Source of the DNA: Mobula birostris | Lineage: Eukaryota | Direction: 5' to 3' | Assembly: GCF_030028105.1 (NCBI RefSeq) | Contig: NC_092375.1 | Coordinates: 146,009,415 to 146,073,414 of the forward strand | DNA length: 64,000 nucleotides | Shown here: piece by piece, positions 6,073 through 52,900 of the stretch | Layout: each line of letters begins with the position of its first letter | How positions within the stretch are numbered: position 1 is the stretch's first letter | The notes under the pieces: model-generated | Database searches by the model: none | What the model was told of the DNA's origin: nothing | The model's input: the letters and a program-made list of their open reading frames with translations, nothing else | Translations under genes and position numbers: made by a program

Positions 6073-7796
6073 ATGGGAAAGGCAAGGGCTACTCAGTAAA
6101 TGAACCAAAATGAGAATTCTTCATGAACACCTGAGAAACTATTAACACAGATATGTTTCTTCCCACAGATCATCTTCTACGAGGACAGGAACTTCCAGGG
6201 TCGGCACTATGAGTGCAGCTCCGACTGTGCCGACCTCTCCCCTTACTTCAGCCGCTGTAACTCCATCCGTGTCGAGAGTGACTGGTGGGTGTTGTACGAG
6301 AGACCCAACTACATGGGATACCAGTATGTCCTGAGCAGGGGAGACTATCCTGACTACCAGCGCTGGATGGGATTCAATGACACAATCAGGTCCTGTTGCA
6401 GCTACCCATACGTACGTTTCTATTTTTTTTCCAGGGCATCTGATCTTTTGCAGTTTGTCTCTGAAGATGCCAGCAATTGTCTAATGGGTATTAAGTATGC
6501 TTGTTTATTTATATGCAGTGTTGTGCAATTATGAAGAAAACACAGCAGAGCTTTGGTTTGCGAAGGTTCAGCATGGCATCAATGTAAAGACGGAGGTAGT
6601 GTTAGGTCTCTTAACGAGCATTAATGCACCTAAGTCCCCAGGGCCTGACGGAATATAACCGAGGTTACTGAGAGAGGCAAGAGATAAGATTGCTGGGACC
6701 TTGAGCAACAACTTCTTGTCTTTTTTCATCATCTCGCATATTGCTTACAATTTTGGTGACGCCATTACTGGAATGATGTCGAGATGTTGGAGAGGGTGTA
6801 GAAGGGGCTTATCAGGATGCTCTCGATTAGAGGGCATTGGATATAATGAGATGTTGGACAACCTTATGCTGTTTTCTCTGGAGTGGCAGAGGTTGAGTGG
6901 ACATCACGTAGAGGTTTATAACGTCAAGAGAGGCATAGATAGAGTAGAGAGACAGTATCTTTCTCGCACGGTTAAAATTACAGATACCAGAGAACATGCA
7001 TTTAAGGTGAATGGGTGTATGCTCAAGGGAGATATGAAGGGCAAGTTTTTTTTACACGGAGAGAGGTGGGTGTCTGGAATATGCTGCCCAGGGTGATGTT
7101 AGAGGCAGGTTCACCAGGGGCTTTTAAGAGAGTCTTAGGCACATGCATATAAGGGATGTTGAAGGATAAGGACATTACTTACGCAGAGAAGAATTAATTT
7201 AAATAGTCAACTAAATTTAAGTTTACTAATTTAATTGGTTCAGCAGAAAATTGTGGGCCAAAAGTCCTGTTCCTGTGCTCTACTGTTCTATGTTCTACGT
7301 TCTAAATACAGAATTTCTCATATTTTCTCCTTTGTTTTCCTTTAACTTATGTTTGAATCAGCAGCAATGCCAGTTGGAGACAGATAATTAATGAAATTTT
7401 CACAGTGCATCTAACTTTATTTCCCATTGAAGACTGTGAAATGGTGTTCTGATGTAATGCTTAATGAGCGAACGATCGTCAAAAGATTATTACTAAAACG
7501 GTGTTTTTTTTCTATTCCAGTATCGAGGAGGAAACTACAGGATGAGGATTTATGAGAGGCCTGACTTTGCAGGACAGATGATGGAGTTCATGGATGACTG
7601 TCCCCCTGTCTACGATCGTTTCCGTTACCATGACATCCACTCCTGTCAGGTGATGGATGGTTACTGGATCTTCTATGAACATCCCAACTACAGAGGCCGA
7701 CAGTACTTCCTGAGACCCGGGGAATACAGGAGATACATTGACTGGGGCGGCTACAACTCAATGATCGGGTCCTTCAGGCGCATGAGGGACTTCTAA
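6073..7796 (+). CDS. Gamma-crystallin (elasmobranch gamma-S1-like), copy 1; exons 6073-6081, 6169-6411, 7521-7796; 175 aa
   Basis: Spliced translation MGK|[53 protein letters not shown]...|[23 protein letters not shown]...GSFRRMRDF* shows four beta/gamma-crystallin Greek-key motifs. Exons of 9/243/276 nt with phase-0 introns match the classical gamma-crystallin layout. TATA at 6008, AATAAA at 7847-7852. Confidence 0.95.
6560..7305 (+). mobile_element. Old CR1 remnants in intron 2, shared by copies 1-4 (also ~16630-17300, 26850-27270, 39100-39720)
   Basis: [14 protein letters not shown] motif, gagagggtgcagagg, and ttctatgttcta tail in homologous intron positions. Confidence 0.75.
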
Positions 7797-11748: not shown

Positions 11749-11992
11749 CAAACAACAGGAATTCTGCAGATGCTGGAAATTCAAGCAACACACATCAAAG
11801 TTGCTGGTGAACGCAGCAGGCCAGGCAGCATCTCTAGGAAGAGGTACAGTCGACGTTTCAGGCCGAGACCCTTCGTCAGGACTAACTTCCTTCAGTTAGT
11901 CCTGACGAAGGGTCTCGGCCTGAAACGTCGACTGTACCTCTTCCTAGAGATGCTGCCTGGCCTGCTGCATTCACCAGCAACTTTGATGTGTG
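11749..11992. mobile_element. Non-autonomous Penelope-derived palindromic insertion
   Basis: Arms 11787-11887 and 11894-11994 are reverse complements with one mismatch. The arm matches the terminus of the GIY-YIG element at 24522. Near-perfect TSD ttacttaat(a/c)ggta at 11735-11748 and 11993-12006. Confidence 0.85.
11897..11934 (+). ncRNA. Minimal type I hammerhead ribozyme motif (mirror copy on - at 11847-11884)
   Basis: TAGTC-CTGACGA-AGG(gtctcgg)CCT-GAAAC-GTC^-GACTG: CUGANGA and GAAA core, stem I TAGTC/GACTG, stem II AGG/CCT, palindromic ACGT stem III, GUC cleavage triplet. Confidence 0.75.
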
Positions 11993-13310
11993 TTACTTAA
12001 TCGGTATACAGGTAGCCACTCCAAACGCACAGAAATTATAGAAATCAAAATGTGTAAAACACCAGAAATATGCTGAATTAAAAGAGGAAGTTGAAAGACT
12101 TTGGAACATGAACAGGGTATACATTGTCCAGATGGTATCATTCAAAAGGCATGACACAATAGAATTAAACAATCTGGGCTACACAGCAATATCTATATAA
12201 ATCTTCAGAAAGCCATAACTTTAAACACCACTAGAAAATCTGAAAGTACCTAGTATTCGAGAAATGAGTGTACTTGGCTATGCCTGTACCTCAGCTTTTA
12301 CCAGCTTGAGCTGAGAAAAAAACTAATAGAGGTTAACACATTCACAATGCATAAATATTATCGAGCAATGGAACTTGATTCTGTCAGGACAGCATACAAG
12401 GACAAACTTCATCAACAGTTTATAACACAATATCCTGTCATGCAAGTAAATGCACAATGAATAGAAAATCAAATTGGAGTGAGAGTAAAAGATAACTTAA
12501 TTCCTATAGACATGTTAAACCAAATAAAACATGAAGTTGCACAAGAGCTTCAAAGAAGCCAACCTAAAACTATAACAATGCTATGCAAGAGAATAATGAA
12601 GATGCAATCCACCAAAGTGCTGATGGAAATAGAATTATTTCAGCTGCTTCACAATCCAACGTTAACAGCAGCAACACATATGTAGAGCCTTCGCAAAATG
12701 CCGATGATAAAGCTGAGCTTACAGACAAAATTATCCAAATATTTAACACCACACTGACAGAATATATGGGTATTGATCCAACAAAGGGACCCCACATGTC
12801 AAAGTAAAATACATCATCAAAATTTGCAAAAATTGTTAATACTCTCAACAATATTATAATACCACAATATTTTGGAAAACTTGCCACAATTGAAGAACTA
12901 CACATAATATACTGTGTAGCATTATCAGCAGTACAGTGCAATGGCTACAAAACAGAGGGACTCATTAATAGAGACCCAAAATTGAGCAATGAAATCAAAA
13001 TACCATAATGGCAGAAGTGATTTTAAAAAATGAAAACCTAAGAGCAGAAATAGCCCACCTAATAGATATAAAATGGATAATCTGAGCAAGAATGATAAGG
13101 GAAAAGCCAAGGAAATACAAAAGGAAATGTAAAGTCCATACAAGAAATGATCAGCCTAACAAAAGCAATGTAGAATTTATAGAAACCAGTACACTAAAAC
13201 AAAAGCTTGTGCACACAAAGCCAGACTAAATAGGTATATGAAATGTGCGAGAGGAAGCAAACAGAATTATCAGTTAAGAAACAATGAGAAAGATTTAAAC
13301 AGGCCATTGA

Positions 13311-14650: not shown

Positions 14651-16046
14651 TTCTTTTGTTACTATAGCACAAAAGAAATTAAACTACGCATAAAAGGTTG
14701 TCACCCTGTTGACATATTAAGCACATTTCACTATTGTACACAAATATATATTTCCTTTTCCAATTTTTGATACAGATGTTGTTGTCAATGTGGTGTTTGG
14801 GATGATTTGTCTGCAGATTTTAGAACTGGCTAATTTATACTGTTTTTATTGAAGAAATTTTTCAATGTTCACACGTTGATGTCACTGGGCAAAGAATTGC
14901 ACAGCACAAGATTTTTGGGCACACTGGTCATTACAAGTTAGAGGGAACATTGCCTCAGCACTTTTTTATTTCTTTTCTGCACTACTTATATAAAATTAAC
15001 TATTTAATCGTATATACTTCATTTTTCCCTATATTTATTTATCATGTACTTCATTGTGCTGCTGCTTTAAAGCTAACAACTTTCACAACATATGCCAGTG
15101 ACATTGAACCTGATTCTGAATCTGATTCTTACTTTCATTTTGTAAGCGGTCATATCATTCACACCCTCACACAGCCTTGAGCATCCATCATTAATTCCAG
15201 TTTAGCCCATGAAATGCATTCCGGAGATCGTATTTGGACATCTTGTATCTTTGCTGGTCACCAGACCTGAATGCATCTCACCTGGCTCTAAGCAGATTAC
15301 GGATCTCATGGTTCATCTAGGGGTCCTGGTTGGGGAAGGTGCTGAATGATTTTGTGGGGACACACTCGTCTGCGACTGCTTTTATAATCCACCAGCTTAT
15401 CAGAAGCAATTACTAATTGATTGGCCTTTCTCACATCAGTAAAAAAAATTAACAGGAATGAGATAGCACAAGGAGGGTGAGGAAATCCAGAATGTAGAGA
15501 TAATTGAAATGCTGAGCGTATGTGTACAGTTCTTCAATGACAGGAGAGTGGAAGGCTTTGATTGTTCAACGTGTTCACCAAGAGAAATGGAGCAAACATC
15601 GTGAATGCCAGAAGTGGAAAAACTACAAGGGACCACTGCGGAAGGCAATATTAACTCTTACTTAGAGGATCAAGTGGGTTATGAAGGGAGAGACAGCAGA
15701 GATTATTGAAGGCAAATCATATGTGACTCATCTGGCTGAATTTGCTGATGAAAGAATAAAGGTGGCGGATCAGTGTTGTGTAGCAGAAGCTGTACAGATC
15801 GATTGTCAAAAGATGTTTGTCAGTTTAATAAGGTGTCTCCTTAATGTAGGCAGTTTGGGAAAGTGATTCAGAAGGTTACTTTGACATAGGTGAATGGACC
15901 TGGGTGATATGTAGCTGTGAATGTTCCTAAACTGTTTAGTTGAAACAACAATTAAAATGATAAGAAAGCACAACTGAAAGAATCCACAATGCAACAAATG
16001 TCTTTGTTGTTTTTTGACAATAAATGAAAAAAAGGATTTTGTCACA

Positions 16047-16127
16047 TTTTGCTGATGTTTAATGTTGTGTCATCAGAATAACAAGAAACTGCCTGGTGAG
16101 GCCTTTCTACCCTGTATATAAATACCA
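16047..16127 (+). promoter_or_regulatory. Proximal promoter of copy 2 (TGCTGA 16050, TATA 16117)
   Basis: Homologous to the copy 1 promoter with the same 67-nt spacing. Confidence 0.7.
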
Positions 16128-16181
16128 ACTCGTGTTAGACAGTGAAACATTCAGCTGGTTACCAGACTCACTGTGTTCAAT

Positions 16182-17814
16182 ATGGGAAAGGCAAGGGCTA
16201 CTCAGTAAATGAACTAAATGAGAATTCTTCATGAACACCTGATCAACTATTAACACAGATATGTTTCTTCCCACAGATCATCTTCTACGAGGACAGGAAC
16301 TTCCAGGGTCGGCACTATGAGTGCAGCTCCGACTGTGCCGACCTCTCCCCTTACTTCAGCCGCTGTAACTCCATCCGTGTCGAGAGTGACTGGTGGGTGT
16401 TGTACGAGAGACCCAACTACATGGGATACCAGTATGTCCTGAGCAGGGGAGAGTATCCTGACTACCAGCGCTGGATGGGATTTAATGACTGTATCAAGTC
16501 CTGTCGCAGTTACCCACCTGTAAGTTGCTGTTGGTAACTGAATTTTATCCTTCGGAGTTTGGCTTTGCTGATGGAGAATTTGCCTCGGAAGTGCCTGCTG
16601 GGTATCAAATATGCCTGAGTGTATTATTATGAAGGGTATTTTGAGGCAAAGGAGGTGGTAGTGTTAGGTCTTGTAAAGAGAATTAAGTTGGATAAGTCAC
16701 CAGGGCCTGATGGGATATTCCCCAGGTTACTGAGAGGGGAAGGAGATTGCTGGGACCTTGACCAACATCTTTGGATCTTCTTTAGCTATCTGGAGTTTAG
16801 CAAGAGTTTTGTTCACATCATTATAGGAAGGACGTCAAGGCCTTGTAGGGGGTGCAGAGGAGACTTGGCGGGATGCTGACAGAATTAGGAGGCACGTGCT
16901 ATATTGTGTTCTTTTCTCTGGAGTGGCAAAGGCTGAGGGGGAGATCTGAGGGAGGTTTTTAAGATTTATAAGATTATGAGATTATGATAGAGTAGACAGA
17001 CAGTATCTTTTTCCCCACAGTTAAAAGCTATAAAACCAGAGGACATACACTTAAGGTGAGAGGCTGCCTGCTGTGTTATTAGAGACAGACAGTTGGGTAC
17101 TTCTGCAAAATGTTTTGTTAGGCACATGAATATGAGGAAAGTGGAAGGAAATGGACATTATTTAAGCAGAAGGGATAGTTTAGTTTGCCATTTAATTTAA
17201 ATGATCACATAAATTTAAATTTACAAATTTAATTGGTTCAGCAGAATATTGTGGGCCAAAAGGCCTGTTCCTGTGCTCTACTGTCATATAATCTATGTTC
17301 TAAATGTAGAACTTCTCATATTTTCTCCTACATTTTCCTTTAGCTTCCATTTGAACCAGTAGTAATGCCGGTTGGAGACATTGTTGAGGCAAATGGTTAG
17401 AGAAATGATCAAATTGCATCTGACTTTATTTCCTGTTGAAGTCAATGGCCAGACTATGAATTAGTGTTCAGATGTAGTGTACAATGAGTGAATGACCTAC
17501 GAAATATCATGACTAAAACTGTGTTTTTCCTATTCCAGTACCGAGGTGGAACCTACAGGATGAGGATTTACGAAAGGCCTGACTTTGCCGGGCAGATGAT
17601 GGAATTCATGAATGATTGTCCCTCTGTCTACGATCATTTCTGTTGCCATGACATCCACTCCTGTCAGGTGATGGATGGTTACTGGATTTTCTATGAGCAG
17701 CCCAACTACAGAGGCCGACAGTACTTCCTGATACCTGGGGAATACAGGAGATACAGTGACTGGGGCGGCTACAACTCAATGATCGGGTCCTTCAGGCGTA
17801 TGAGGGACATCTAA
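16182..17814 (+). CDS. Gamma-crystallin (gamma-S1-like), copy 2; exons 16182-16190, 16277-16519, 17539-17814; 175 aa
   Basis: Same exon sizes, open frame, AAG|GC and cag|ATC junctions, CCT|gtaagt donor, ttccag|TAC acceptor. TATA at 16117, AATAAA at 17865-17870. Exon 3 has several private substitutions (DHFCCH, FLIP). Confidence 0.93.
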
Positions 17815-20806: not shown

Positions 20807-20940
20807 AATAGATAGAACCATTCAAAACAGATATAAAATACAGAAATCAGCAATTAAAAAGAAACACCAGAAATATGCGGAATTAAAAGAGGAATTTGAA
20901 AGACTATAAAAAACATGAACAGGTTATACATTGTCTCAAT

Positions 20941-23212
20941 CAGTGATCATAACACCATTAGTTTCAACTTGATATTGGACAAGGATAGATCTGGTCCTAA
21001 GGTTGACGTTCTTAACTGGAAGAAGGCAAAATTTGAAGAAATGAGAAAGGATCTAAAAAGCGTGGATTGGGACAGCTTGTTCTCTGGCAAGGATGTGATC
21101 AGTAGGTGGAAAACCTTCAAAGGAGAAATTTTGAGAGTGCAGAATTTGTATGTTCCTGTCAGGATTAAAGGCAAAGTGAATAGGAATAAGGAACCTTGGT
21201 TCTCAAGGGATATTGCAACTCTGATAAAGAAGAAGAGGGAGTTGTATAACATGTATAGGAAGCAGGGAGTAAATAAGGTGCTTGAGGAGTATAAGAAGTG
21301 CAAGAAAATACTTAAGAAAGAAATCAAGAGGGCTAAAAGAAGACATGAGGTTGCCTTGGCAGTCAAAGTGAAGGATAATCCAAAGAGCTTTTACAGGTAT
21401 ATTAAGAGCAAAAGGATTGTAAGGGATAAAATTGGTCCTCTTGAAGATCAGAGTGGTCGGCTATGTGCGGAACCAAAGGAAATGGGGGAGATCTTAAATA
21501 GGTTTTTTGCGTCTGTATTTACTAAAGAAACTGGCATGAAGTCTATGGAATTAAGGGAAACAAGTAGTGAGATCATGGAAACTGTACAGATCGAAAAGGA
21601 GGAGGTCCTTGCTGTCTTGAGGAAAATTAAAGTGGATAAATCCCCGGGACCTGACAGGGTGTTCCCTCGGACCTTGAAGGAGACTAGTGTTGAAATTGCA
21701 GGGGCCCTGGCAGAAATACTTAAAATGTTGCTGTCTACAGGTGAGGTGCCGGAGGATTGGAGAGTGGCTCATGTTGTTCCGTTGTTTAAAAAAGGATCGA
21801 AAAGTAACCCGGGAAATTATAGGCCAGTAAGTTTATCATCGGTAGTAGGTAAGTTATTGGAGGGAGTACTAAGAGACAGAATCTACAAGCATTTGGATAG
21901 ACAGGGACTGATTAGGGAGAGTCAACATGGGTTTATGCGTGGTAGGTCATGTTTGACCAATCTATTGGAGTTTTTCGAGGAGGTTACCAGGAAAGTGGAT
22001 GAAGAAGAGAAGGCAGTGGATATTGTCTACATGGACTTCAGTAAGGCCTTTGACAAGGTCCCGCATGGGAGGTTAGTTAGGAAAATTCAGTCGCTAGGTA
22101 TACATGGAGAGGTGGTAAATTGGATTAGACATTGGCTCAATGGAAGAAGCCAAAGAGCGGTAGTAGAGAATTGCTTCTCCGAGTGGAGGCCTGTGACTAG
22201 TGGTGTGCCACAGGGATCAGTGCTGGGTCCATTGTTATTTGTCATCTATATCAATGATCTGGATGATAATGTGGTAAATTGGATCAGCAAATTTGCTGAT
22301 GATACAAAGATTGAAGGTGTAGTAGACAGTGAGGAAGGTTTTCAGAGCCTGCAGAGGGACTTGGACCAGCTGGAAAAATGGGCTGAAAAATGGCAGATGG
22401 AGTTTAATATTGACAAGTGTGAGGTATTGCATGTTGGAAGGACAAACCAAGGTAGAACATACAGGGTTAATGGTAAGGCACTGAGGAGTGCAGTGGAACA
22501 GAGGGATCTGGGAATACAGATACAAAATTCCCTAAAAGTGGCGTCACAGGTAGATAGGGTCGTAAAGAAAGCTCTTGGTACATTGGCCTTTATTAATCAA
22601 AGTATTGAGTATAAGAGCTGGAATGTTATGATGAGGTTGTATAAGGCATTGGTGAGGCCGAATCTGGAGTATTGTGTTCAGTTTTGGTCACCAAATTACA
22701 GGAAGGATATAAATAAGGTTGAAAGAGTGCAGAGAAGGTTTAGAAGGATGTTGCCGGGACTTGAGAAACTCAGTTACAGAGAAAGGTTGAATAGGTTAGG
22801 ACTTTATTCCCTGGAGTGTAGAAGAATGAGGGGAGATTTGATAGAGGTATATAAAATTATGATGGGTATAGATAGAGTGAATGCAAGCAGGCTTTTTCCA
22901 CTGAGGCAAGGGGAGAAAAAAACCAGAGGACATGGGTTAAGGGTAAGGGGGGAAAAGTTTAAAGGGAACATTAGTGGGGGCTTCTTCACACAGAGAGTGG
23001 TGGGAGTATGGAATGAGTTGCCAGACGAGGTGGTAAATGCGAGTTCTTTTTTAACATTTAAGAATAAATTGGACAGATACATGGATGGGAGGTGTATGGA
23101 GGGATATGGTCCGTGTGCAGGTCAGTGGGACTAGGCAGCAAATGGTTCAGCACAGCCAAGAAGGGCCAAAAGGCCTGTTTCTGTGCTGTAGTTTCTATGG
23201 TTCTATGGTTCT
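20941..23212 (+). mobile_element. Young 5'-truncated CR1 LINE with uninterrupted ORF2 (RT domain; ORF 20915-23134)
   Basis: Starts at the SDH end of the APE domain; KSPGPD, NYRPVSL, QHGF, DFSKAFDKVPH, GVPQGSVLGP, FADDTK; (TTCTATGG)n tail. Confidence 0.95.
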
Positions 23213-24510: not shown

Positions 24511-24521
24511 TACTGGTAGAT

Positions 24522-25576
24522 AACACACATCAAAGTTGCTGGTGAATGCAGCAGGCCAGGCAGCATCTCTAGGAAGAGGAACAGTTGATGTTTCGGGCCG
24601 AGACCCTTCATCAGGACTAACTGAAAGTAGAGATAGTAAGAGATTTGAAAGTGGGAGGGGGAGGAGGAGATCTGAAATGATAGGAGAAGACAGGAGGGGG
24701 AGGGATGGAGCCAAGAGCTGGACAGTTGATTGGCAAAAGGGATATGAGAGGATCATGGGACAGGAGGCCTAGGGGGAAAGAAAACGGGGAGGGGGGGAAA
24801 CCAGAGGATGGGCAAGGGGTATAGTCAGAAGGACAGAGGGAGAAAAAGGAGATAGAGAAAAAGAACAAGTGGATATAAATAAATGACGGATGGGGTACGA
24901 TGGGGAGGTAGGGCATTAGCAGAAGTTTGAGGTCAATGTTCATGCCATCAGGTTGGAGGCTACTCAGACAGAATATAAGGTGTTGTTCCTCCAACCTGAA
25001 TGTGGCTTCATCTTTACCGTAGAGGAGGCCGTGAATAGACTTATCAGAATAGGAATGGAATGTGGAATTAAAATGTGTGGCCACTGGGAGATCCTGCTTT
25101 CTCTGGCAGACAGAGCGTAGCCATTCAGCGAAACGATCTCCCAGTCTGCGTGAAGTCTCGCCAATATATAGAAGGCCACATTGGGAGCACTGGACGCAGT
25201 TTATCACTCCTGCCGACCCACAGGTGAAGTGTCGCCTCACCTGGAAGGACTGCCTGGGGCCCTGAATGGTAGTGAGGGAGTAAGTGTAAGGGCATGTGTA
25301 GCACTTGTTCCGCTTACAAGGATAAGTGCCAGGAGGGAGATCGGTGGGGAGGGATGGGGGGGGAGATGAATGGACAAGGGAGTTGCGTAGGGTGCGATCC
25401 CTGCGGAAAGCCGGGGGGTGGGGGAGGGAAAGATGTGTTTAGTGGTGGGATCCCGTTGGAGGTGGCAGAAGTTACGGAAAATAATATGCTGGACCTGGGG
25501 GCTGGTGGGGTGGTAGGTGAGGACAAGGGGAACACTATTCCTAGTGGGGTGGCGGGAGGATGGAGTGAGAGCATCC
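24522..25576 (-). mobile_element. Penelope-like element 3' fragment with GIY-YIG endonuclease remnant and terminal degenerate hammerhead (24582-24619)
   Basis: PLVLTYHP and FTC.S.GVI.C..C..CGLLYIGETSRRLGDRFAE...PVATHFN...EEQ..IF; 10-bp TSD actggtagat (24512-24521 and 25577-25586). Confidence 0.9.
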
Positions 25577-26400: not shown

Positions 26401-27790
26401 ATGGGAAAGGCAAGGACTACTCAGTAAATGAACTAAATGAGAATTCTTCATGAACACCTGAGCAACTATTAACACAAATATGTTTCTTCCCACAGATCAT
26501 CTTCTACGAGGACAGGAACTTCCAGGGTCGGCACTATGAGTGCAGCTCCGACTGTGCCGACCTCTCCCCTTACTTCAGCCGCTGTAACTCCATCCGTGTC
26601 GAGAGTGACCGGTGGGTGTTGTACGAGAGACCCAACTACATGGGATACCAGTATGTCCTGAGCAGGGGAGAGTATCCTGACTACCAGCGCTGGATGGGAT
26701 TCAATGACACAATCAGGTCCTGTCGCAGTTACCCATATGTAAGTAGCAATTTCTTTTTCAGGGAATTTGATCTTTTGCAGTTTGGCTTTGCTGATGGAGA
26801 ATTTGCCTCACAAGCACCTACTGGGTATCAAATATGCCTGAGATTATTAATATGAAGGGCATTTCAAGGCATAGGAGGCAGTAGTGTTGGGTCTCGTAAA
26901 GAGAATTAAGTTGGATAAATCCCCAGTCCTTGATGGGATATAGCCCAGGTTATTGAGAGAGGCAAGAACTGAGATTGCTGGGACCTTGACCAACATTTTT
27001 GGATCTTTTTTAGCTATTTAGAGTTTCGCAACAGTTTTGGTCGTCGAGGCTTTGGAGAGGGTGCAGAGGAGGATTGTCAATAATGCTGTCAGAATGAGAA
27101 GACGTGCTATAACGAAAGGGTGGACAATCTTGTGTGGTTTTCTTTGCAGCAGTGAAGGCTGAGGGGGAGATCTGAGAGAAGTTTCTAAGCTTATCAGAGG
27201 TATCGATAGAGTAGACAGACAGTATCATTGGCCCACAGTTAAAAAATATAATACCAGAGGACATGAATATGTTTTAAGATCTAAATGCAGAATTTCTCAT
27301 ATTTTCTCCTGGGTTTTTCTTTAACATATTTGAACCAGTAGTAATGCCAGTTGGAGACATTGCTGAGGCAGATAGTTAGTGAAATGATCAAATTGCATCT
27401 GACTTTATTTCCCATTGATGTAAATGTCCAGCCTGTGAATTAGTGTTCAGATGTAGTGTATAGTCAGAGAATAGTCTATAAAACATAACTAAAACAGTGT
27501 TTCCTATTCCAGTACCGAGGTGGAAACTACAGGATTAGGATTTACAAGAGGCCTGACTTTGCAGGGCAGATGATGGAATTCATGGATGACTGTCCCTCTG
27601 TCTACGATCGATTCCGTTACTGTGACATTCCATCACCTGTCAGGTGATGGATGGTTACTGGATCTTCTATGAACATCCCAACTACAGAGGCCGACAGTAC
27701 TTCCTGAGACCCGGGGAATACAGGAGATACAGTGACTGGGGTGGCTGCAACTCAATGATCGGGTCCTTCAGGCGTATGAGGGACTTCTAA
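26401..27790 (+). pseudogene. Gamma-crystallin copy 3, frameshifted; exons 26401-26409, 26496-26738, 27513-27790
   Basis: Exon 3 is 278 nt rather than 276: gacattccatcacctgtcag versus gacatccactcctgtcag in the other copies, giving a premature TGA at 27645-27647 (128-aa product). Also DWW>DRW, YER>YKR, and poly(A) signal AATAAA>AGTAAA (27841-27846). An assembly error cannot be excluded. Confidence 0.82.
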
Positions 27791-38648: not shown

Positions 38649-40152
38649 ATGGGAAAGGCAAGGACTACTCAGAAAATGAACTAAATGAGAATTCTTCATG
38701 AACACCTGAGCAACTATTAACACAGATATGTTTCTTCCCACAGATCATCTTCTACGAGGACAGGAACTTCCAGGGTCGGCACTATGAGTGCAGCTCCGAC
38801 TGTGCCGACCTCTCCCCTTACTTCAGCCGCTGTAACTCCATCCATGTCGAGAGTGACTGGTGGGTGTTGTACGAGAGACCCAACTGCATGGGATACCAGT
38901 ATGTCCTGAGCAGGGGAGAGTATCCTGACTACCAGCGCTGGATGGGATTCAATGACACAATCAGGTCGTGTCGCACCTACACTTATGTAAGTTTCAGTTT
39001 TTTTAGGGTGTTTGATCTTTTGCAGTTTGGGTCTGAAAATGGAGAATTTGCCTAGCCAGTGCCTAATGGGTATCAAATATGCCTGAGTGTATTAATATGC
39101 TCAGGCATTCCGAAGTGAAGGAGAAGGTAGTGTTAGTTCCCTTAAAGAGCAAGAATGTGGATAAGTCCCCAGGGCCTGAAGGGATATACCCCTGGCTATT
39201 GAGAGAGACAAGAAATGAGATTGCTGGGACCTTGACCAACATATTCATTTCTATTCTAGCCATCAGGAGTTTTGCATACAGTCTTGTTTGCACCATTATG
39301 GGAAGTATGCCGAGAATTTGGAGAGGGTGCAGAGGAAACTTGTCAGGATTCTGCCAGAAGTAGAGGGCATGTGCTATAACAAGAGGTTGCAATAGGCTGG
39401 GTTGATTCCTTTGGCATGCCGAAGACTGAGGGGAGATCTGATAGATGTTTATCAGATAATGAGAGGTATAGATAAAGGAGACGGACAGCATATTTTGGCC
39501 ATGGTTCAAATACCAGAGGGTATGCATTTTACGTGAGAGTATATAAGTTCAAAGGAGACGTGAGGGGTAATTTTTTGCACAGAGTGGTGGGTGTCTGGAA
39601 TGTGTAGCCCCGAGTGATGTTAAAGGCAGCTACATCAGGGACTTCTAGATGATGTTTAGTTAAGCAAATGAATGTAAGGGAAGTTGAAGGATATGAACAT
39701 TGTTTAAGCAGAAGGGATTAGTTAGTTTAATTTAATTTAATTTAATATAGTTAGTGAAATCATCAAATTGTATCTGACTTTATTTCCCAGTCTGTGAATT
39801 AGTGTTCAGATGTCATTTATAATATGTGAATTCTCTACAAAACATCATTACTAAAGTTCAATGTTTCCTATTCCAGTACCGGGGTGGAAACTACAGGATA
39901 AGGATTTACGAGAGGCCTGACTTCAGAGGGCAGATGATGGAATTCGTGGATGACTGTCCCTCTGTCTACGATCGTTTCCGTTACCGTGACATCCACTCCT
40001 GTCAGGTGATGGATGGTTACTGGATCTTCTATGAATATCCCAACTACAGAGGCCGACAGTACTTCCTGAGACCCGGGGAATACAGGAGATACAGTGACTG
40101 GGGTGGCTACAACTCAATGATTGGGTCCTTCAGGCGCATGAGGGACTTCTAA
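38649..40152 (+). CDS. Gamma-crystallin (gamma-S1-like), copy 4; exons 38649-38657, 38744-38986, 39877-40152; 175 aa
   Basis: Open frame across 9/243/276-nt exons, TAT|gtaagt donor, ttccag|TAC acceptor. TATA at 38584, AATAAA at 40203-40208. Confidence 0.95.
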
Positions 40153-41747
40153 AAGTGGCTCTTGAAAATCTGATTTTAACCTGTTGAAATATTTAAGGAT
40201 GCAATAAAATATCTTTGATGAAACTATCAGCTCATTTGGTTCATTTCTTCTGATTCCACTGGAAATCACAATAGAACAGTAATCAGGATCTGAGTACCAC
40301 ATTAAGTTGTTTTACACAGTTGGTTCCAGTTAACAGATAACATTATTATGATTCACAGGAGACTGAAAAATATGAGCTGAATAACAAGTTGGTCTTTGCT
40401 TCTTGAGTTATTGTGTCCATTGTGTGGCATTGAGCTCCATTTCTGAATTTATTTCCAGTGAATTTATTGAGTATAAATATCTGTCTTTATGAGTTCCATG
40501 ATTCTGATGGTTTTGTGAAATGACTTCACAAACGTACGAACAACATAAATAGAGACATGGAGTTAAACAGCACATAAAGCAGCAGTTTTACAAAACACAA
40601 TGACTTCTACCGAAGTTGAGACCAGTGTTAACAACAGGTTCTGTATGATTCTACAGGTTCTATGATTCTGTACGGGTCAGCATTGTGAAGGATGGAGGTT
40701 GAGTCGAAATTGATTTGGAATGATTTGAAGTTGTAGAATTTTCTACAGAAATTTAACAAAATAAGAAATAAGAATGAATTCTTTAAACCTCAATAAACAG
40801 AGATCTGAAATATCGCAATGGGACTGAACTGGAAGTCTTGAAGAGGATAGAACTGTCTATCCCAGGGGTTGTAGAGGCAGATCATTGGATATTGAAAGAG
40901 AAAGTCGAAACACGTTTGGGAAGTCAAGATATGGGGTATTTGGCCCAGAAGAAGAAAGGAGCAGGTTCTGGTGGTGCAGTAATAACTTCTTACCACTTCA
41001 TACTATCATTGTATGAAAGAGATGCAGGAAGTATTTAGCTTAGAAGCATGATCTGAGGTAAAATTGAAGCCCATCAGATCCACATATTGTTAGTGTTTTT
41101 CAGTTAACCTAGAATTAAGTCCATGCATAGTGATGTGAAGGGCTTTAATTCTGGCTTGCTGAGGGATGCTAATGTTAGGACAGATGAACCTTTTGAGTTC
41201 TTTTGAGTTGAGTGAAGGATGATCTTATTGAAACAAATAGCACTGATTTGTTGGGTGTTGTATATCTCCTTTGGAGGTAAATAAGGTGGTCAGTATTTTG
41301 GTTCAAAACCCACTATCAGGACTGAGAATGCAAAGAGATAACTAGTATTAGAGGCAATGGAGAGGGGTGAGGCAGGGGCTGGTGGGCAACAGGTGAAACT
41401 AGGTGAGGAGGGGGATGATGGGCAGATGGAGCCAGGTGTGTGGAGGGGTCAGGGTGGAGTTTGCGAGACCAGTGGGAAATAGGTACAAAACGATAGGGCG
41501 AGAGGAGAAAATAAGAGCAGGTGGAGCCGGGTGGAGGAAAACTCAAGGTAGAGAAAGAGGCTGGAAGGTGAAAAGCAGACATACAAAAGGCTGCAGGTAC
41601 TGGAATCTGAGAAGGGAGGGATAATGGAGCAATATTTTGTGTGCATTCAGATAACAGTCCTTTACTTCTGAAGTTTTTTCCATTTCTCCTTCTCTAACTC
41701 CAGCTGGAGGTCGACCCTTTTCACAGTCTGATTACGCATATCGCTAT

Positions 41748-43190
41748 TAGAACCATAGAACCATAGAACACTACAACAGAGAAGACAGGCCATTCAGCCC
41801 TTCTAGTCTGTGCCGAAACTTTATTCCGCTAGTCCCATTGACCTGCACCCAGTCCATAACCCTCCAGACCTCTCCCACCCATGTATCTATCCAATTTATT
41901 CTTAAAACTTAAGAGTGAGCCTGCATTTACCATGTCAGATGGCAGCTTGTTCCACACTCCCACCACGCTCTGAGTGAAGAAGTTCCCCCTAATGTTCCCC
42001 CAAATGTTTCCCTTTTCACCCTAAAGCCATGTCCTCTCATATTTATCTCTCCTAATCTAAGTAGAAAGAGCCTACTCGCATTTACTCTGTCTATACCCTC
42101 ATAATTTTGTAAATCTCTATCAAATCTCTCCTCTTTCTTCTACACTCCAAGGAATAAAGTCCTAACCTCTTTAATCTTTCCCTGTAATTCAACTCCTGAA
42201 GACCTGGCAACATCCTAGTAAATCTTCTCTGCACTCTTTCAATCTTACTAATAGCCTTCCTATAGTTAGGTGACCAGAACTGCACGCAATACTCAAAATT
42301 TGGCCTCACCAATGTCTTATACAACCTCAGCATAACATCCCAACTCCTATACTCAGTACTTTGATTTATGAATGCCAGGATGCCAAAAGCTTTCTTTACA
42401 ATCCTGTCTACCTGTGACACCACTTTCAGGGAATTATGTATCTGAACTCCCCGATCCCTTTGTTCCTCTGCACTCCTCAGTGCCCTACCATTTACTGTGT
42501 ATGTCCTACCTTGATTTGTCCTTCCAAAATGCAACACCTCACACTTGTCTGCATTAAATTGCATCTGCCATTTTCTGGCCCATTTTTCCAGTTGGTCCAG
42601 ATCCCCCTGCAAGCTGTGAAAGCCTTCCTCACTGCCCACAATGCCTCCAGTCTTAGTGTCATCAGCAAACTTGCTGATCCAATTTACCACATTATCATCT
42701 AGATCATTGATATAGACAACAAACAACAATGGTCCCAGCACAGGTCCCTGAAGCACACCACTAGCCACAGGCCTCCAGTCTGAGAAGCAATCATCCACTA
42801 CCACTCTCTGTCTTCTCCCACACAGCCAATTTTGAATCCAGTTTACAACCTCTCCATGGATACCTCGTGTCTGAACCTTCTGAACTAACCTCTCATGTGG
42901 GACCTTATCAAAGGCTTTACTAAAGTCCGTGTAGACAACATCCACCGCCTTTCCTTCATCCACTTTCTTGATAACCTCCTCGAAAAATTGTACAAGATTT
43001 GTTAAACACGATCTACCACGCACAAAGTAAGGCAGCAAGCACCTCCTCCTCTTTAACATCTATATGTTCCATGACACTACTGCTTGTTTCCCTTCCTTCC
43101 ATATATGTTATGCCAGTTTTCTGAGTAAATACTGATGCAAAAAACCTGTTTAAGATCTCCCCCATCTCGTGAGGTTCCACGCATAGACGA
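41748..43190 (-). mobile_element. CR1 LINE 3' portion (ORF 42091-43059), related to the 20941 copy
   Basis: GRSCLTNL..FF, DFSKAFDKVPH, FADDTK, RPNFEYCVQFWSP; tail tagaaccatagaaccatagaa. Confidence 0.93.
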
Positions 43191-44758: not shown

Positions 44759-47700
44759 CTAGAAGTCCCTCATGCGCCTGAAGGACCCGATCATTGAGTT
44801 GCAGCCGCCCCAGTCACTGTATCTCCTGTATTCCCCGGGTCTCAGGAAGTACTGTCGGCCTCTATAGTTGGGATGTTCATAGAAGATCCAGTAACCATCC
44901 ATCACCTGACAGGAGTGGATGTCACGGTAACGGAAACGATCGTAGACAGAGGGACAGTCATCCATGAATTCCATCATCTGCCCTCCGAAGTCAGGCCTCT
45001 CGTAAATCCTCATCCTGTAGGTGCCTCCTCGGTACTGGAATAGAGGATTTTAATGAATCTTTAATACAGTATAATCATGTCAAAAATGTGTACAATATAC
45101 TGTAGATATTATATATAGATGCAGTCGTACCAATCCTCTATAATGATCAATAATTAATTATATTTCAGGACTATCCTTAATGAAATAATATGGAGAAAAT
45201 TTATCTCTACATTGGGGACAGTTAAACTATAGACAATTGTGATTAAGAATGATATAGTTCACTGTTTCTACAGGAGACGGTGAAGAACCACACAATTTCA
45301 TAAATATACATTAAAAATAAATTATTTGCTGTTGATCACATGAAAGGTATTTTAAGGATGTTAATACATCCTCTTTCTTCTTTTCCAATATTTTTTGTTG
45401 ATTTCGATATAGAAGAATACAGAGTTCAAGAGAATACATATTATAAAACAAAAAAAAATATAATAGTACCAGATACAGTATATTGAATCACATTAATGAA
45501 CTCCTTACTCTATATTCAATATAATCACATGAAAGTGTGTATGACAGAATTATGTTTCTGAAGTAGAGGCACCTTTTGCATATCTAAAAAGTTTAATACC
45601 TGGTTGAAGAGCAAGCTCTGGAGTTTTGAATATAGTATTACCAAAAAGAACAAGTTTTAAGGATTTAGTTCCACATAGAGATAATATGAGTCACTTAATG
45701 TAAAAGTTGTGTTAGAAGATGTACGTAAGTGCTGGTCTGTGTCTGTAAATAAGATGGTTTCTTAATATAAAAGAGATTGCAAGTTGATCTGTGGACTTAG
45801 AACCTGACTTCTTCATTGGTTTGTGTTACTTGACAAAAGTGAACCTGATCATCTTGAAAGTATTTGTAAATTATGGGAGAGGACAAATTGCTTCAACATA
45901 GAGTGAACATGGATTCAAACAACCTATTTCCATGCTTTAACCTCACTGTGACCTATGAAATCATGCAATTAAAAAGGGAGAATTGTGTAATCCAGTTCAC
46001 ACACAGCTTGATTCAGTGAATTAGGTGTTTCTGAACCAAACTCTGCACAGATGCATGAAAGGAGGCCACTCATCCCACTGAATCCTTGATAGACAATTTT
46101 TTCTTCTTTCCATCCTCTTACTATCTCTTATACGATAAATGGCATAGATGAAATGGATAGCCAGAGATATTTTCCCAGGGTGGTAATGGCTAACATGAGG
46201 GCTTATAATTTACAGAAGTAGGACAAAAGTATAGGGGATACATCAGAGGTGCTTTTTCCTACAGCACAGTGCAATAGGCCTGTACTGTGCTGTATAGTTC
46301 CATGTTTTCCACTCTCTGCCCATGATGGGTTACAGCACATCTAGAGTAATAGAGCACAAAGGTGGCTCTTCGGCCCAAAAGGTATGTGCTGACCACAATG
46401 CTCATCTCTCATTTGCCTACGTTTGACCCTTACCCTCTGATTAATTTTTCTTTGTTTTGTATTTTTTGTATTACAGACGTCTCAGACATCAATGTCCAGG
46501 TGTTATAGCTGCATTCATGTCATTGTATAAAACCATCACAAACTGACCAAATATTCTATGTGGCCCAATTAGACCTGAATAAAGGAGATACAAGAGATGG
46601 CAGATCCTGGAATCTCGATCAACACAGAAGGTACTGGAAGATCTCAGACAATCAGGCAGCCTCTATGGAAGGAACTTAACAGACAACATTTCAGGATGAG
46701 ACCCTTTATCAAGACCAGCAAATGCTGGCTGACTGGCTGAGATCGCCCAGAATCTTGTGCGTTGACATTAATAAAGGTTCAGCATAAAAAGTCAAAGATG
46801 ATAAATGTTACCTTTGTTTCTCTTGAAATGGTTGCTGTTAGATCTAATGTTTTTCCAAAATTTTCTGCTTTTCATTTCATATCCCAGCAACTGCAAGTTT
46901 CTATTTGTTTTTGATTCAGCATAACTTTTCTGCTCTATATTTAACACAGCTATTTACGGAGCCCAAGATGACACGATGACAAATATTTTGCTCACACCTT
47001 TTAATACGTCCTGATTCTCTGTCCCTACACCTCCTCTCCCCACCTTGGAATTGAGCAATTAAGTCTTCATTGCTTCTCCGCATTTGTTGGGAATCTCTCC
47101 ACTGCTATTCCAGTTTCACCATACCCTGTGTGCTCTGCCATCTCCCATTCAGAAGCTCTACCCTGGTACATTCCCTTTAGGTTGGCATGAGCTAAATCCA
47201 GCCAGGTCTGCATCCTATTTGCCACCTGCATTCTGGGTCACTCTGTCACCTCTGCACATCTCACTACCGCCCACAACCGCTCTGTCCTGGTGGGTTTTTC
47301 CTCTGTCTTCTCAGCCTGGTCACACTTCACCCTACCCCATGCCCTGCCTCATCAGCCCACACCTCTTCACATTGCCCGCCATATCTGTTTTGGTGGCAAC
47401 TTCACTCTGTTCACCCAACACAGTCTTTCCGACCTTCACCCTTTCAGGTCTGTTTTAATTGCACTCCGTGTCATCCTGCTGCCTCTTCATTCCCCTTTGA
47501 TGCCCGCTGCCCCTGTGCCCTGCGGAGTTCGCTCTCACTTTGTTTTGCCTTCATCCTCACCAGTGCACTGGTTCATCAGTACGCATCTTCTCACATTGTC
47601 CCTGCTCACGGGCTCAGGTAGATACTTTGTGATTGCAGAGTTTCTGTCACTGTCACTGTCACAAACCTCAAACCTGACTAACCTATAGGTAAAATACATC

Positions 47701-48555
47701 TCTTCACTATCCTTTCAATGCTTCTAATAAACATCTTCCCATCCACATCAGATTCAGAATGGTTCATGAAGCCACAAACACTGCCTTACTATTTCTCTTT
47801 CACACTATTTATTTGCTTTTTGTAAACTATACTAGTTTCTATATCTTGCACTGCACTGCTGCTACAAATCAACACATTTCACAACTTAAGTCAGTGATAA
47901 TAAATCTGATTTTGACTCTGATTGTTGGTTGTGCCCTCACAATCACAGATACAGATCTGTCTGTCAAAAGCAACAGGACTTTCAGCCTTCACAACAGATT
48001 CACTATTTTCCTGTATCAACTTCATTTCTGTTGATCAATTTAACAATATTTACTGACTTCAAACTTGGCCCCAAATGCCAGCAGCTAACTCTAGCATTCA
48101 CAGCAGTTTAACATTTCAGAGAAAGAGCTTGTGCACAAGTGTAATTATTGCAAATCTCAGCCATTTTCTAGCGGTGTGCCAAGTGGCATGGAATATCTCA
48201 GTCACCAACAGCAACTTACAGGTGGGTAACTGCGACAGGACTTGATACAGTCATTAAATCCCATCCAGCGCTGGTATTCAGGATACTCTCCCCTGCTCAG
48301 GACATACTGGTATCCCATGTAGTTGGGTCTCTCGTACAACACCCACCAGTCACTCTCGACACGGATGGAGTTACAGCGGCTGAAGTAAGGGGAGAGGTCG
48401 GCACAGTCGGAGCTGCACTCATAGTGCCGACCCTGGAAGTTCCTGTCCTCGTAGAAGATGATCTGTGGGAAGAAATAAATAGCTTAAATCAGACTGGGGA
48501 CACATGATGGTTACAATATAATTCACAAAATGAAAAGTGGTCTTGCCTTTCCCAT
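44759..48555 (-). CDS. Gamma-crystallin (gamma-S1-like), copy 5, inverted; exons 48555-48547, 48462-48220, 45034-44759; 175 aa
   Basis: Minus strand reads ATGGGAAAG|gcaaga...ccacag|ATCATC...CCACCT|gtaagt...ttccag|TACCGA...GACTTCTAG. Intron 2 is 3185 nt. TATAAAT at 48611-48605, AATAAA at 44712-44707. Confidence 0.95.
46588..46768. mobile_element. Old Penelope-derived foldback element in intron 2 of copy 5
   Basis: Diverged match to the 11749 element (gcagatcctggaatct...catttcaggatgagaccctttatcaagac); flanked on both sides by aataaagg. Confidence 0.55.
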
Positions 48556-49944: not shown

Positions 49945-52900
49945 TGTCAGGCCTGCACAGGAAGGCACCTCCCAGTCTCCACACCTGCCATTCATTTCCG
50001 GCTCATCACCTGCAGTCTATCTAAACCCAGCTCTCATGCCCAGCCCTTGTCCACATCAAACTGGCCAGTCTCAGCCAGTTACTCCTAGCCCTTGTCCACA
50101 TCAAACTGGCCAGTCTCAGCCAGTTACTCCTAGCCTTCAGTTACCTTATTGCCTGTTGTGTTAAGTATTCACTCTCTCTTATTTTGTGGCTCAATCTGGC
50201 TTGTTATTTTGCAGTGTATTATTAAAGAGCTTGCTCACTGCTAAATCATCTCCACTGCTCTGCATTTGGGTCAAGACTCACAGGATGGGTGAAGCATCGA
50301 TTGACCCAGCAGAGCATGCTCGCCTGAAGGAAATGGTCCACCGACGCGAGCACACAATCCAGAAGCAGCAAGAATCCACTGACAACTTGCTTGCCATTCT
50401 ATTCCAATTCTCCAACTTGATACAGCAACCTTGCACAAGTCAATCTCCTCCTTCTGAGCCCTGGATTCTGGTTCTCAAATGCTTCGACAGATCCCCACAA
50501 TATTGGCACACCTTCCTGTTCCAGTGTGTCTTACAGTTCAGACTCCAACCATCTCTGTATTCCACAAGATTACCTTCCTCATCTCCCCCTTGACTGGGAC
50601 AATAAAACCACCATCTGCAATAAAGCCATGAATGATTACATCACCAAAGTGCTACAGCATAGCTTCAATCGAACATCCCAGTCCCTAGCCAGTGCAGCTA
50701 GGGGTGTCTGTCGCTGCATCAACTACCATGGATTCAACAAAATCACCATTAAGAACCGCTATCCTCTCCCTTTGATAGATAGTGCATTTGAAATCTTCTG
50801 TGTGTCCCAGATCTTCACCAAACTGGATGTACAGAGTGTGGACAACCTGATCCACATCCACCAGGGGGAAGAGTGGAAGACGGCATTCATAACACCCACT
50901 GACCACTATGAATATTTGATTATGCCTTTTAGACTTTCCAAAGTCCATCTGTTTTCCAAGCCTTCATTCACAAAATCCTCTCAGACAAGCTGCACAGGCA
51001 TCTGTTCATTGACCTCAATCATATCGTCTTCTTCTCTAAGGTCCCCCAAAGACCACGTCTCTCATATCTGTTCAGTCTTTCAGCATCTCCTCAAAAACCA
51101 ACTGCACTGCAAGTTAGAGAAATGCCAGTTTCATACCCCAGATATTTTCTTCCTGGGTTATAGCCATGGACCCAGAGAAAGTGTACACCATCATTGTAAA
51201 CTCCTGACCTCACACCTCCAACAGCTACAATGTTTTTGGGCTTCTCCAACTTCTACTGCCGTTTCATCAGGAATTACAACCAAATCACTGGTCCTCCCAC
51301 CCTCCTCATCACATCAGACCACGCTTTCAACGACTTCAAGAGCTGGTTCACAACCACTCCCGTTCTTTGGCCTTCCATAACCCTTCGGACCTTTTGTGAT
51401 AGAGGTGGATGCATGTGGTGTGCGCACTGGGACTGTCCTCTCCCAGCGAGGACCAGATGGGAAAAGGCACCCTTGTGCCTTCTTCTCATGTAAGTTCAAC
51501 TCTACACAGCATCATTATGGAGCAGGGGACAGGGAACTACTCACAATTAAATAGGCCTTGGAGCAATGGAGACATTGGCCTGTGGAGAACACTGAGCATT
51601 TCTGACCACCAGCAGACCCACCAACTCAGTCCATGTCAGTTTGCTAGGCCCTCTTCTTCAAACAGCTCAACTTCACCATCTCCAACCAGCTTGGTTCTAA
51701 GAACACTAAGGTCAAAGCCCCGTCATGAAAATTCGACCCAGCTGAAATGGAAATTGACCTTCAGCCTATCATTCCATTCTTGCAGAACCTCACCCCGACC
51801 ATCTGGGATCTTGAGAACCTGATCCTCCAGGCCCTACTGCACAATCCTGCTCCAGCTGACACCTGACAACTGCATGTATGTGCTGGAGGTCGCATGCTGT
51901 GAGGCACTCCAGTGGACCTGCTCCTCACCCCTCTCCAGCCATTCAGGCACATGCTGGACCCTGGGTTTTCTGTGACTCTGGTTCTGGTGGCCTGCCATGA
52001 TCGCAGGTGTGCATCAGTTTGTTGTTGCCTGGCCTCAGTGTGTCCTGTTCAATTCCTCCAAGCTGCCATAGATTTCATCACGACTAGGCCACAGAGATTG
52101 TGACAGCGGTAGACCAGTGCTCCAAGGCGGCCCACTTCATTGTCCTCCCTAAACTTCATTCCGCAACTGAGAGGACAGATCTGGTTCGCCACGGTTTCCC
52201 TCAGGACATTGTATTGGACTGGGGCCCACAATTCATCTCCCACTTCTGGCAAGCCCTCTGCTCCCTCCTCCGCACCTCAGTGAGTTTGTCCTTTGCCTAT
52301 CATACGCAGACCAACATTCAGTCCGCAAGTGGAGAAGTTTCTGCAATGCTTTGACACCCCTAACCCTTCTACATGGAAGGGGTATCTGCTCTGGACCAAA
52401 CTGTCCTACGATCTACACATTTTCTCTGCTATGGGTGTGTCATCCTTTCAAGTGCTTCATGGCTACTAAATCCCATTGTTCCCTGCAGAGAAACCAATGA
52501 TGTGGGTTACATCTGCCAAGGCCCTGGTTTGCTACTGGCAGAATGCTTAGAAAGGGCATGGAGGGCCATCCTAGCTGTCAACTGCACCTACCGCTGTCAG
52601 AACAACAGCCATCAGTGCCTGACCAGACTACTCCACCCTGGGACCACGACAGGCTGTTAACCTGAGCTCTGGCCCCGTGCACAGACTCCTGCATGCTCTC
52701 GCCCCAGTTCAGTGGTCCCTTCCAGCTCGCCCATGGCGTCGGTCCAGTTACTTACCATCTCCAGCTGCCATGGTCCCTCAGGATCGCACCTACCTTCCAC
52801 GTCTTGCCTCAAGTACATTGTCCGTGGGCCAGTCAAGGTGGTCGAGTGGACACAGTTCACCAGTTGATGGATTCATGTTGTCGTGTTTGGCGTGTGGTCA

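Follow-up and report, generated by a model that had tools for sequence, protein, structure and literature searches.

The gamma-crystallins of the rat have evolved in concert. Interlocus conversion among the mammalian gamma-crystallin (CRYG) genes is reported (Plotnikova et al., 2007; PMID 17564961). The locus of the ray Mobula birostris that we analysed here resembles the mammalian one in that clustered three-exon gamma-crystallin paralogs swap sequence. It differs in belonging to a ray and to a much larger cluster, and in that an edge of the tract is visible in introns that are otherwise unalignable. Conversion between CRYBB2 and CRYBB2P1 occurs in human cataract, and a review, in the section available to us, warns that chimeras of this kind can be artefacts (PMC3554465). 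As far as that section goes, a short tract there also joins crystallin paralogs that lie distant from each other on one chromosome. However, the human gene is a beta-crystallin, its donor is a pseudogene and the product is a disease allele, whereas the donor type in the ray is intact. In teleost protocadherin clusters, lineage-specific conversion and regional homogenisation are described in the excerpted text of PMC1852091. There, too, one coding region has been made uniform among the paralogs of a cluster, although protocadherins have large single exons and are neuronal, whereas the region concerned in the ray crystallins is a 204-nt part of a small exon.

For chondrichthyans, the available text of Mayeur et al. 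(2024; PMC11979771) describes a gamma-crystallin ‘duplication hotspot’ with a 40-gene cluster in the catshark, and takes species-specific clades as recent duplicates. By the same text, the gene family and the type of cluster (tens of genes, pseudogenes, species-specific clades) are the ones that we find here. The terms ‘gene conversion’, ‘concerted’ and ‘homogeni’ are absent from the available main text of that paper, and conversion terms are absent from Kappe et al. (2010; PMC2929430). A Squalomix preprint names the cluster and goes no further. Among the matches listed, mainly from the open-access literature, there was no report of conversion in chondrichthyan crystallins. The tract described below is of a known kind, in a family with known conversion, in a lineage for which we found no report.

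The gamma-crystallin genes of the window

The window, the whole 64,000-nt stretch of DNA that was analysed, contains five complete three-exon gamma-crystallin genes and, by self-comparison and tblastn, no sixth (Table 1). Copies 1 to 4 are arranged in tandem on the forward strand and copy 5 is inverted. Each gene has a 3-codon exon 1, whose boundary is inferred from the sequence, followed by one exon per domain. The proteins belong to the vertebrate gamma-crystallins, with Beta/gamma-crystallin domains and a length of about 175 aa, and the closest named proteins are ray ‘gamma-crystallin S-1-like’ sequences (95-99%). The reading frame of copy 2 is open and encodes 175 aa (PF00030, E 3e-31). 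Copy 5, with an intron 2 of 3185 nt, also encodes 175 aa, and exon 2 of both copies matches Pfam PF00030. In copy 3, a 2-nt insertion in exon 3 (27513-27790) causes a frameshift and an early stop, and exon 2 carries a Trp-to-Arg change; this copy is probably a pseudogene. Over exons 2 and 3, the translations of copies 2, 4 and 5 equal the Mobula birostris proteins P0041, P0154 and P0123, which may derive from the same assembly and thus do not count as independent support.

Table 1. Positions in the window of the five genes and of the segments of copy 2 discussed in the text; each gene range runs from its ATG, which for copy 5 is the higher coordinate.
Feature	Position	Strand	Details
Copy 1	6073..7796	+	tandem type; exon 2 6169-6411; exon 3 CDS from 7521
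Copy 2, recipient	16182..17814	+	exon 1 CDS 16182-16190; exon 2 16277-16519; exon 3 CDS 17539-17814
Copy 3	26401..27790	+	tandem type; flanks nearest to those of copy 2
Copy 4	38649..40152	+	tandem type; exon 2 38744-38986; exon 3 CDS from 39877
Copy 5, inverted, candidate donor	44759..48555	-	exon 1 CDS 48555-48547; exon 2 48462-48220; exon 3 CDS 45034-44759
Family-wide homogenised block	16264..16482	+	intron 1 last 13 nt and 5' part of exon 2
Diagnostic converted segment of copy 2	16483..16541	+	exon 2 last 37 nt and intron 2 first 22 nt; 58/59 as in copy 5
3' breakpoint	16539..16541	+	16540-16541 compatible with copy-5 and copy-3 types; copy 2 4 nt shorter than copy 3
Copy 5 stretch paired with 16264-16541	48198..48475	-	blastn 278 nt, 99.3%

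Several further features of the window were seen. Intron 1 of all five copies apparently begins with GC instead of GT (6082, 16191, 26410 and 38658 on the forward strand, 48546 on the reverse strand). The N-termini of P0041, P0123 and P0154 differ from our gene models, which suggests that the deposited models miss the short exon 1 and its GC donor. Reverse-transcriptase frames of the LINE type lie between or beside the genes at 20900-23134 (+), 42091-43059 (-) and 50421-51380 (+); two of the 11 frames tested exceed the curated cut-off. The first of the three is open over 744 aa (RVT_1, E 1.5e-36), and an inverted copy of it at 41744-43026 is 82% alike. The two halves of 11787-11995 match the same ~100 nt at 24521-24625 (94-95%), one in each orientation, which marks a small palindromic MITE-like element.

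The mosaic structure of copy 2

The original prediction held that exon 2 of copy 2 is of the copy 5 type, in a gene whose promoter and intron 1 are of the tandem type. Our alignments bear this out. The second exons of copies 2 and 5 agree at 242 of 243 nt, and the sole difference, at 16462, is a position where copy 2 agrees with copies 1, 3 and 4. Without a gap, the identity extends over 16264-16541 (276/278; the other difference is at 16536). Beyond these limits copy 2 is of the tandem type. Its identity to copy 3 and to copy 5, respectively, is 90.1% and 50.3% in the promoter (500 nt), 96.5% and 62.2% in intron 1, 82.7% and 44.6% in intron 2 from +23 to +500, and 85.5% and 45.4% in the 3' flank. 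On both sides, therefore, the flanks of copy 2 group with copies 1, 3 and 4. With blastn at word size 7, the non-coding DNA of copy 5 gives three matches to copies 1-4, all of them in copy 2: the 22-nt start of intron 2, 26 nt of the TATA region and 72 nt, inverted, further upstream.

The sequence that sets copies 2 and 5 apart is concentrated at the end of the exon. Copies 2 and 5 have a base in common, different from that of copies 1, 3 and 4, at seven exon sites (16483, 16490-16492, 16497, 16517 and 16518) and at four intron sites in ungapped alignment (16533, 16534, 16537 and 16538); all 11 fall inside 16483-16538. The two copies agree at 21 of the first 22 bases of intron 2, where either of them matches copies 1, 3 and 4 at 12-13 of 22, and copy 2 is copy-3-like from there on, so that the identity of about 20 intron bases claimed at the outset is correct. 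Compared with copy 3, the segment changes Thr to Cys, Arg to Lys and Tyr to Pro in copy 2 (exon-2 codons 72, 74 and 81). By eye, the base of copy 2 at 16536 creates a second donor-like hexamer (16534-16539), 14 nt into intron 2; the hexamer is nearer the consensus in copy 2 than in copy 5, and splicing at it would alter the reading frame.

The 5' part of the shared sequence is of a different nature. Here, 217 nt are nearly identical in all five copies, and the last 13 bases of intron 1 are identical to copy 5 in all four tandem copies. Since 16264-16482 is homogeneous throughout the family, it is silent on the donor, and the tract has its 5' end somewhere within this block. The extent first proposed, 16277 to 16545, thus holds for 16483-16541, which is specific to copies 2 and 5; its remainder up to 16482 is uniform in all five copies. 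The 3' breakpoint, first placed near 16545, was right to within a few bases: the identity ends at 16541 and the breakpoint lies at 16539-16541. In these alignments, the tract has a provable length of 59 nt and a possible length of up to 278 nt.

Permutation tests and trees agree with this picture. The longest run of copies 2 and 5 comprises 21 matching columns, which span exon position 207 to intron +15, and was not equalled in 2000 permutations of the 350 polymorphic gap-free columns (0/2000). This test is generous because exons are generally more alike than flanks, and other pairs also score in it (copies 4/5, 0/2000; copies 3/5, 0.0025; copies 1/5, 0.010). In a test confined to the 61 exon columns, copies 2/5 reach p = 0.0038, or 0.038 when corrected for 10 pairs, copies 4/5 reach 0.0004, and the remaining eight pairs are at 0.24 or above. 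Past the splice consensus, copies 2 and 5 agree at 15 of 16 intron bases (binomial p = 4e-5 against a background of 7/16). In separate trees from the five-locus alignment, the last 44 exon bases and 22 intron bases join copies 2 and 5 at 100/100, whereas in the promoter, intron-2 and 3'-flank trees the branch to copy 5 measures 1.0-1.3 changes per site. The tract is thus far more alike than its flanks and its tree is discordant with theirs, as is expected of gene conversion.

Origin of the copy-5-type segment

Interlocus gene conversion into copy 2 by a copy-5-type paralog very probably explains these observations, and both the non-allelic event and the direction that had been proposed are supported. 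Copy 2 would be one of four old tandem duplicates, in which the 3' end of exon 2 and the following 20-22 intron bases were overwritten non-reciprocally, either by copy 5 or by another copy-5-type gene elsewhere in the cluster. Parsimony points in this direction: the tandem-type end is common to copies 1, 3 and 4, and the flanks of copy 2 lie among theirs. From general recombination biology, copy 2 may have been broken within exon 2 or close to it and have invaded the paralog via the shared 217-nt block, and synthesis may then have continued across the diverged exon end into the intron. The strand would have gone back to copy 2 where alignable sequence stops, at a 2-nt overlap. The orientation of paralogs places no constraint on non-crossover conversion. 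A tract of 59-278 nt is in keeping with the mean of 250 bp given for humans in the available part of a preprint (10.1101/135152). RNA-templated conversion was considered and ruled out, as the tract contains intron bases.

The donor can be described by type. Copy 5, inverted and ~32 kb away, had been named as the source; its type is indeed that of the tract, and four other M. birostris proteins end in the same way. We retrieved 17 M. birostris records, which represent 15 distinct genes and a part of the family. Six of them end exon 2 in the same 11 residues: copy 2, copy 5, P0046, P0049, P0121 and P0126. The four from outside the window, which are known as proteins alone, are identical to copies 2 and 5 over exon-2 residues 63-81. 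Over the whole exon, copy 5 is nearest to copy 2, at a distance of 1 residue, and the other four are at 2-3. In a further gene, isoform P0227 continues into VSCCW, the translation of the first 15 intron bases of copies 2 and 5, and this intron start is probably a trait of a subfamily. Exon codon 62 is Glu in all five donor-type proteins and Asp in copy 2, which means that the tract is older than that change or has its start beyond 16462. The assignment of copy 5 itself as the donor is tentative and falls somewhat short of an even chance.

Among other explanations, a double unequal crossover, or two successive crossovers, with a copy-5-type gene is improbable but fares best. With the reciprocal product lost or outside the window, it would yield the same mosaic in copy 2 and could not be told from conversion by the sequence alone, and the clusters of relatives hold many copies, with 40 clustered genes in the catshark by the available text of PMC11979771. 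On the other hand, copy 5 has no tandem-type end, and it is established that a single conversion tract is more likely than a pair of crossovers within 59-278 nt. A single crossover with the inverted copy would have swapped the flanks, and those of copy 2 are of the tandem type on both sides. Still less probable is the reverse direction, in which the exon end and intron start were born in copy 2 and then copied to copy 5 and others. Pairwise identity is symmetric and would fit either direction. However, copy 2 would then have had to drop to 13/22 identity with copy 3 at the intron start, yet the two are 83% identical over the next 480 bases. Many Mobula, Hemitrygon and Hypanus genes also carry the YPP-type end, including M. 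hypostoma P0124, which is nearest to copy 5 in exon 3.

Near-identical exons are prone to cross-mapping, and the exon end of copy 2 could have been called from copy 5 reads during assembly or polishing. Contigs derived from sequencing reads bear on this question. Part of the gene is contained in 20 of the 24 runs listed, of which four were compared over 15900-16720; 30 of 738 pieces were examined. A 620-nt contig of run X5, from a different organism (B) and a separate study, aligns to 16512-16720 of the window without a gap and with 3 mismatches, two of which fall in the intron (16586 and 16637). Within 16512-16541, the window bases agree with copy 5 at 29 of 30 positions, and with copies 1, 3 and 4 at 17, 19 and 17. 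A tandem-type end would differ at at least 11 of these 30 bases, and the X5 contig therefore carries a copy-5-type end on a copy-2-type intron. It has 30 letters 5' of the join, one under our 31-letter rule for bridging (28 if the breakpoint is at 16539). It starts 30 bases before the place where copies 2 and 5 part, which we infer to be a branch point of a 31-mer graph. Since this start lies 3' of 16483-16497, and since at 16493 copies 2 and 5 have A but each of the 13 X5 contigs listed there has G, organism B confirms the tract over 16512-16541 only.

In X1 (organism A), the best holder of the gene, the pieces listed include no contig that bridges the join, and the bases private to copy 2 at 16095, 16115, 16181 and 16243 are in no listed X1 contig. 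Both points leave some room for an artefact, as does the matching record P0041, which may share the assembly. X9 and X13 are without cover at 16544-16627 and X1 has none listed at 16544-16556; such gaps are not evidence. Against an artefact, the tract contains two differences between copies 2 and 5, and at the join copy 2 departs from copy 3 by 4 nt in length. An assembly error is also unlikely because the contig of a different organism has the same join, and we regard this explanation as very improbable. On balance, the join of copy-5-type and copy-2-type sequence appears to be present outside this assembly, and it is most likely older than the split from organism B.

Least probable of all is the absence of any exchange, with purifying selection or retained ancestral sequence accounting for the likeness of copies 2 and 5: exon 2 is strongly conserved in elasmobranchs (88-99% protein identity), the X9 contig of a distant organism differs at only 4 of 142 bases and selection may contribute to the uniform 5' block, but conservation leaves unexplained both the 15 of 16 matching bases beyond the splice consensus in otherwise unalignable introns and the synonymous site 16483 that copies 2 and 5 have in common.

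Interlocus conversion thus being preferred, its age is hinted at by exon 3. An exon-3 peptide tree of 50 rows, made for dating, is mostly unresolved (stars on 4 of its 43 inner branches). In this exon the protein nearest to copy 2, on an unsupported branch, is M. hypostoma P0163; it has 4 of the 8 off-consensus residues of copy 2 and a DCIK..YPP end. This gives only a hint that the conversion may be older than the split from M. hypostoma.

Uniform exon 2 and diverging exon 3 across the family

The event had first been treated as a single one. Exon 2, however, is uniform across the family, and the tract in copy 2 is probably one visible edge of a series of conversions that maintains this uniformity. 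Over exon 2 positions 1-204, the five copies have no synonymous variant in 37 synonymous sites. Exon 3, counted in four copies with copy 3 excluded for its frameshift, has 18 in 51 sites; 13 would be expected in exon 2 (Fisher p = 1.9e-5). Exon 2 is 94-99.6% identical between copies whose flanks are 67-90% identical or unalignable, and coding identity as a whole is 91-99.6% alongside such flanks. No base of exon 2 is private to copy 2, whereas 14 in exon 3 are, the most among the four intact copies (Fisher p = 1.4e-4), which favours overwriting of exon 2 that was longer or repeated, and recent. Exon 3 of copy 2 (17539-17814) also has 8 off-consensus residues in 82 compared, several of which replace Arg by His or Cys, and this exon may be in decay even as exon 2 is held uniform. 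Among copies 1-4, intron 1 is 95-98% alike and intron 2 is 71-83% alike. Homogenisation among the tandem copies seems to reach upstream through intron 1.

Other exchanges are conceivable in exon 3. Copies 4 and 5 share the exon-3 sites 48, 50 and 110 against copies 1 and 2 (39924-40037). A second tract, in exon 3 of copies 4 and 5, is possible; its run has 14 columns (exon-only p = 0.0004) and consists mostly of an absence of private changes. At 17552 (exon-3 position 14, in a Thr codon), the base of copy 2 is also common to copy 5. In ray proteins, a YPP end mostly goes with Thr at this codon and a YPY end with Asn. The sharing could reflect a micro-tract, a recurrent mutation or linked residues.

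Read-derived contigs give some cross-species support for the homogenisation of exon 2. At the synonymous position 16381, single contigs of organisms B and D, with a depth of about 125, have T, and all five copies of the window and a depth-47 contig of organism A have C. At 16384, a contig of organism B has C, and the five copies and the contig of organism A have G. Single-copy contigs of organism B have a depth of about 5.5; contigs lose minority variants and their depth is not a copy number, and these sites would thus indicate, at most, a shift of the majority base between organisms. Both types of exon-2 end also occur in Hemitrygon and Hypanus proteins and are therefore old variants shuffled among paralogs.

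By itself, the tract in copy 2 is minor: it alters three residues of one lens protein among many that are nearly identical. Its importance is as a mark that trees of coding sequences misdate duplications in this cluster and would overstate recent duplication; the recent-duplication reading in the available text of PMC11979771 rests on such trees. The homogenised exons also explain the cross-mapping of short reads and gene models in the cluster. We lean, by a small degree, towards the view that exon-limited conversion among old duplicates, beside recent duplication, makes much of the species-specific clustering of gamma-crystallins in sharks and rays. If this is true, the cluster would be a long-lived array, in which exon 2 is swept uniform within each species, even where introns are unalignable and copies face opposite ways. 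The true and much older history of the genes would be kept in exon 3 and the flanks, and copy 2 would be half a gene kept young.
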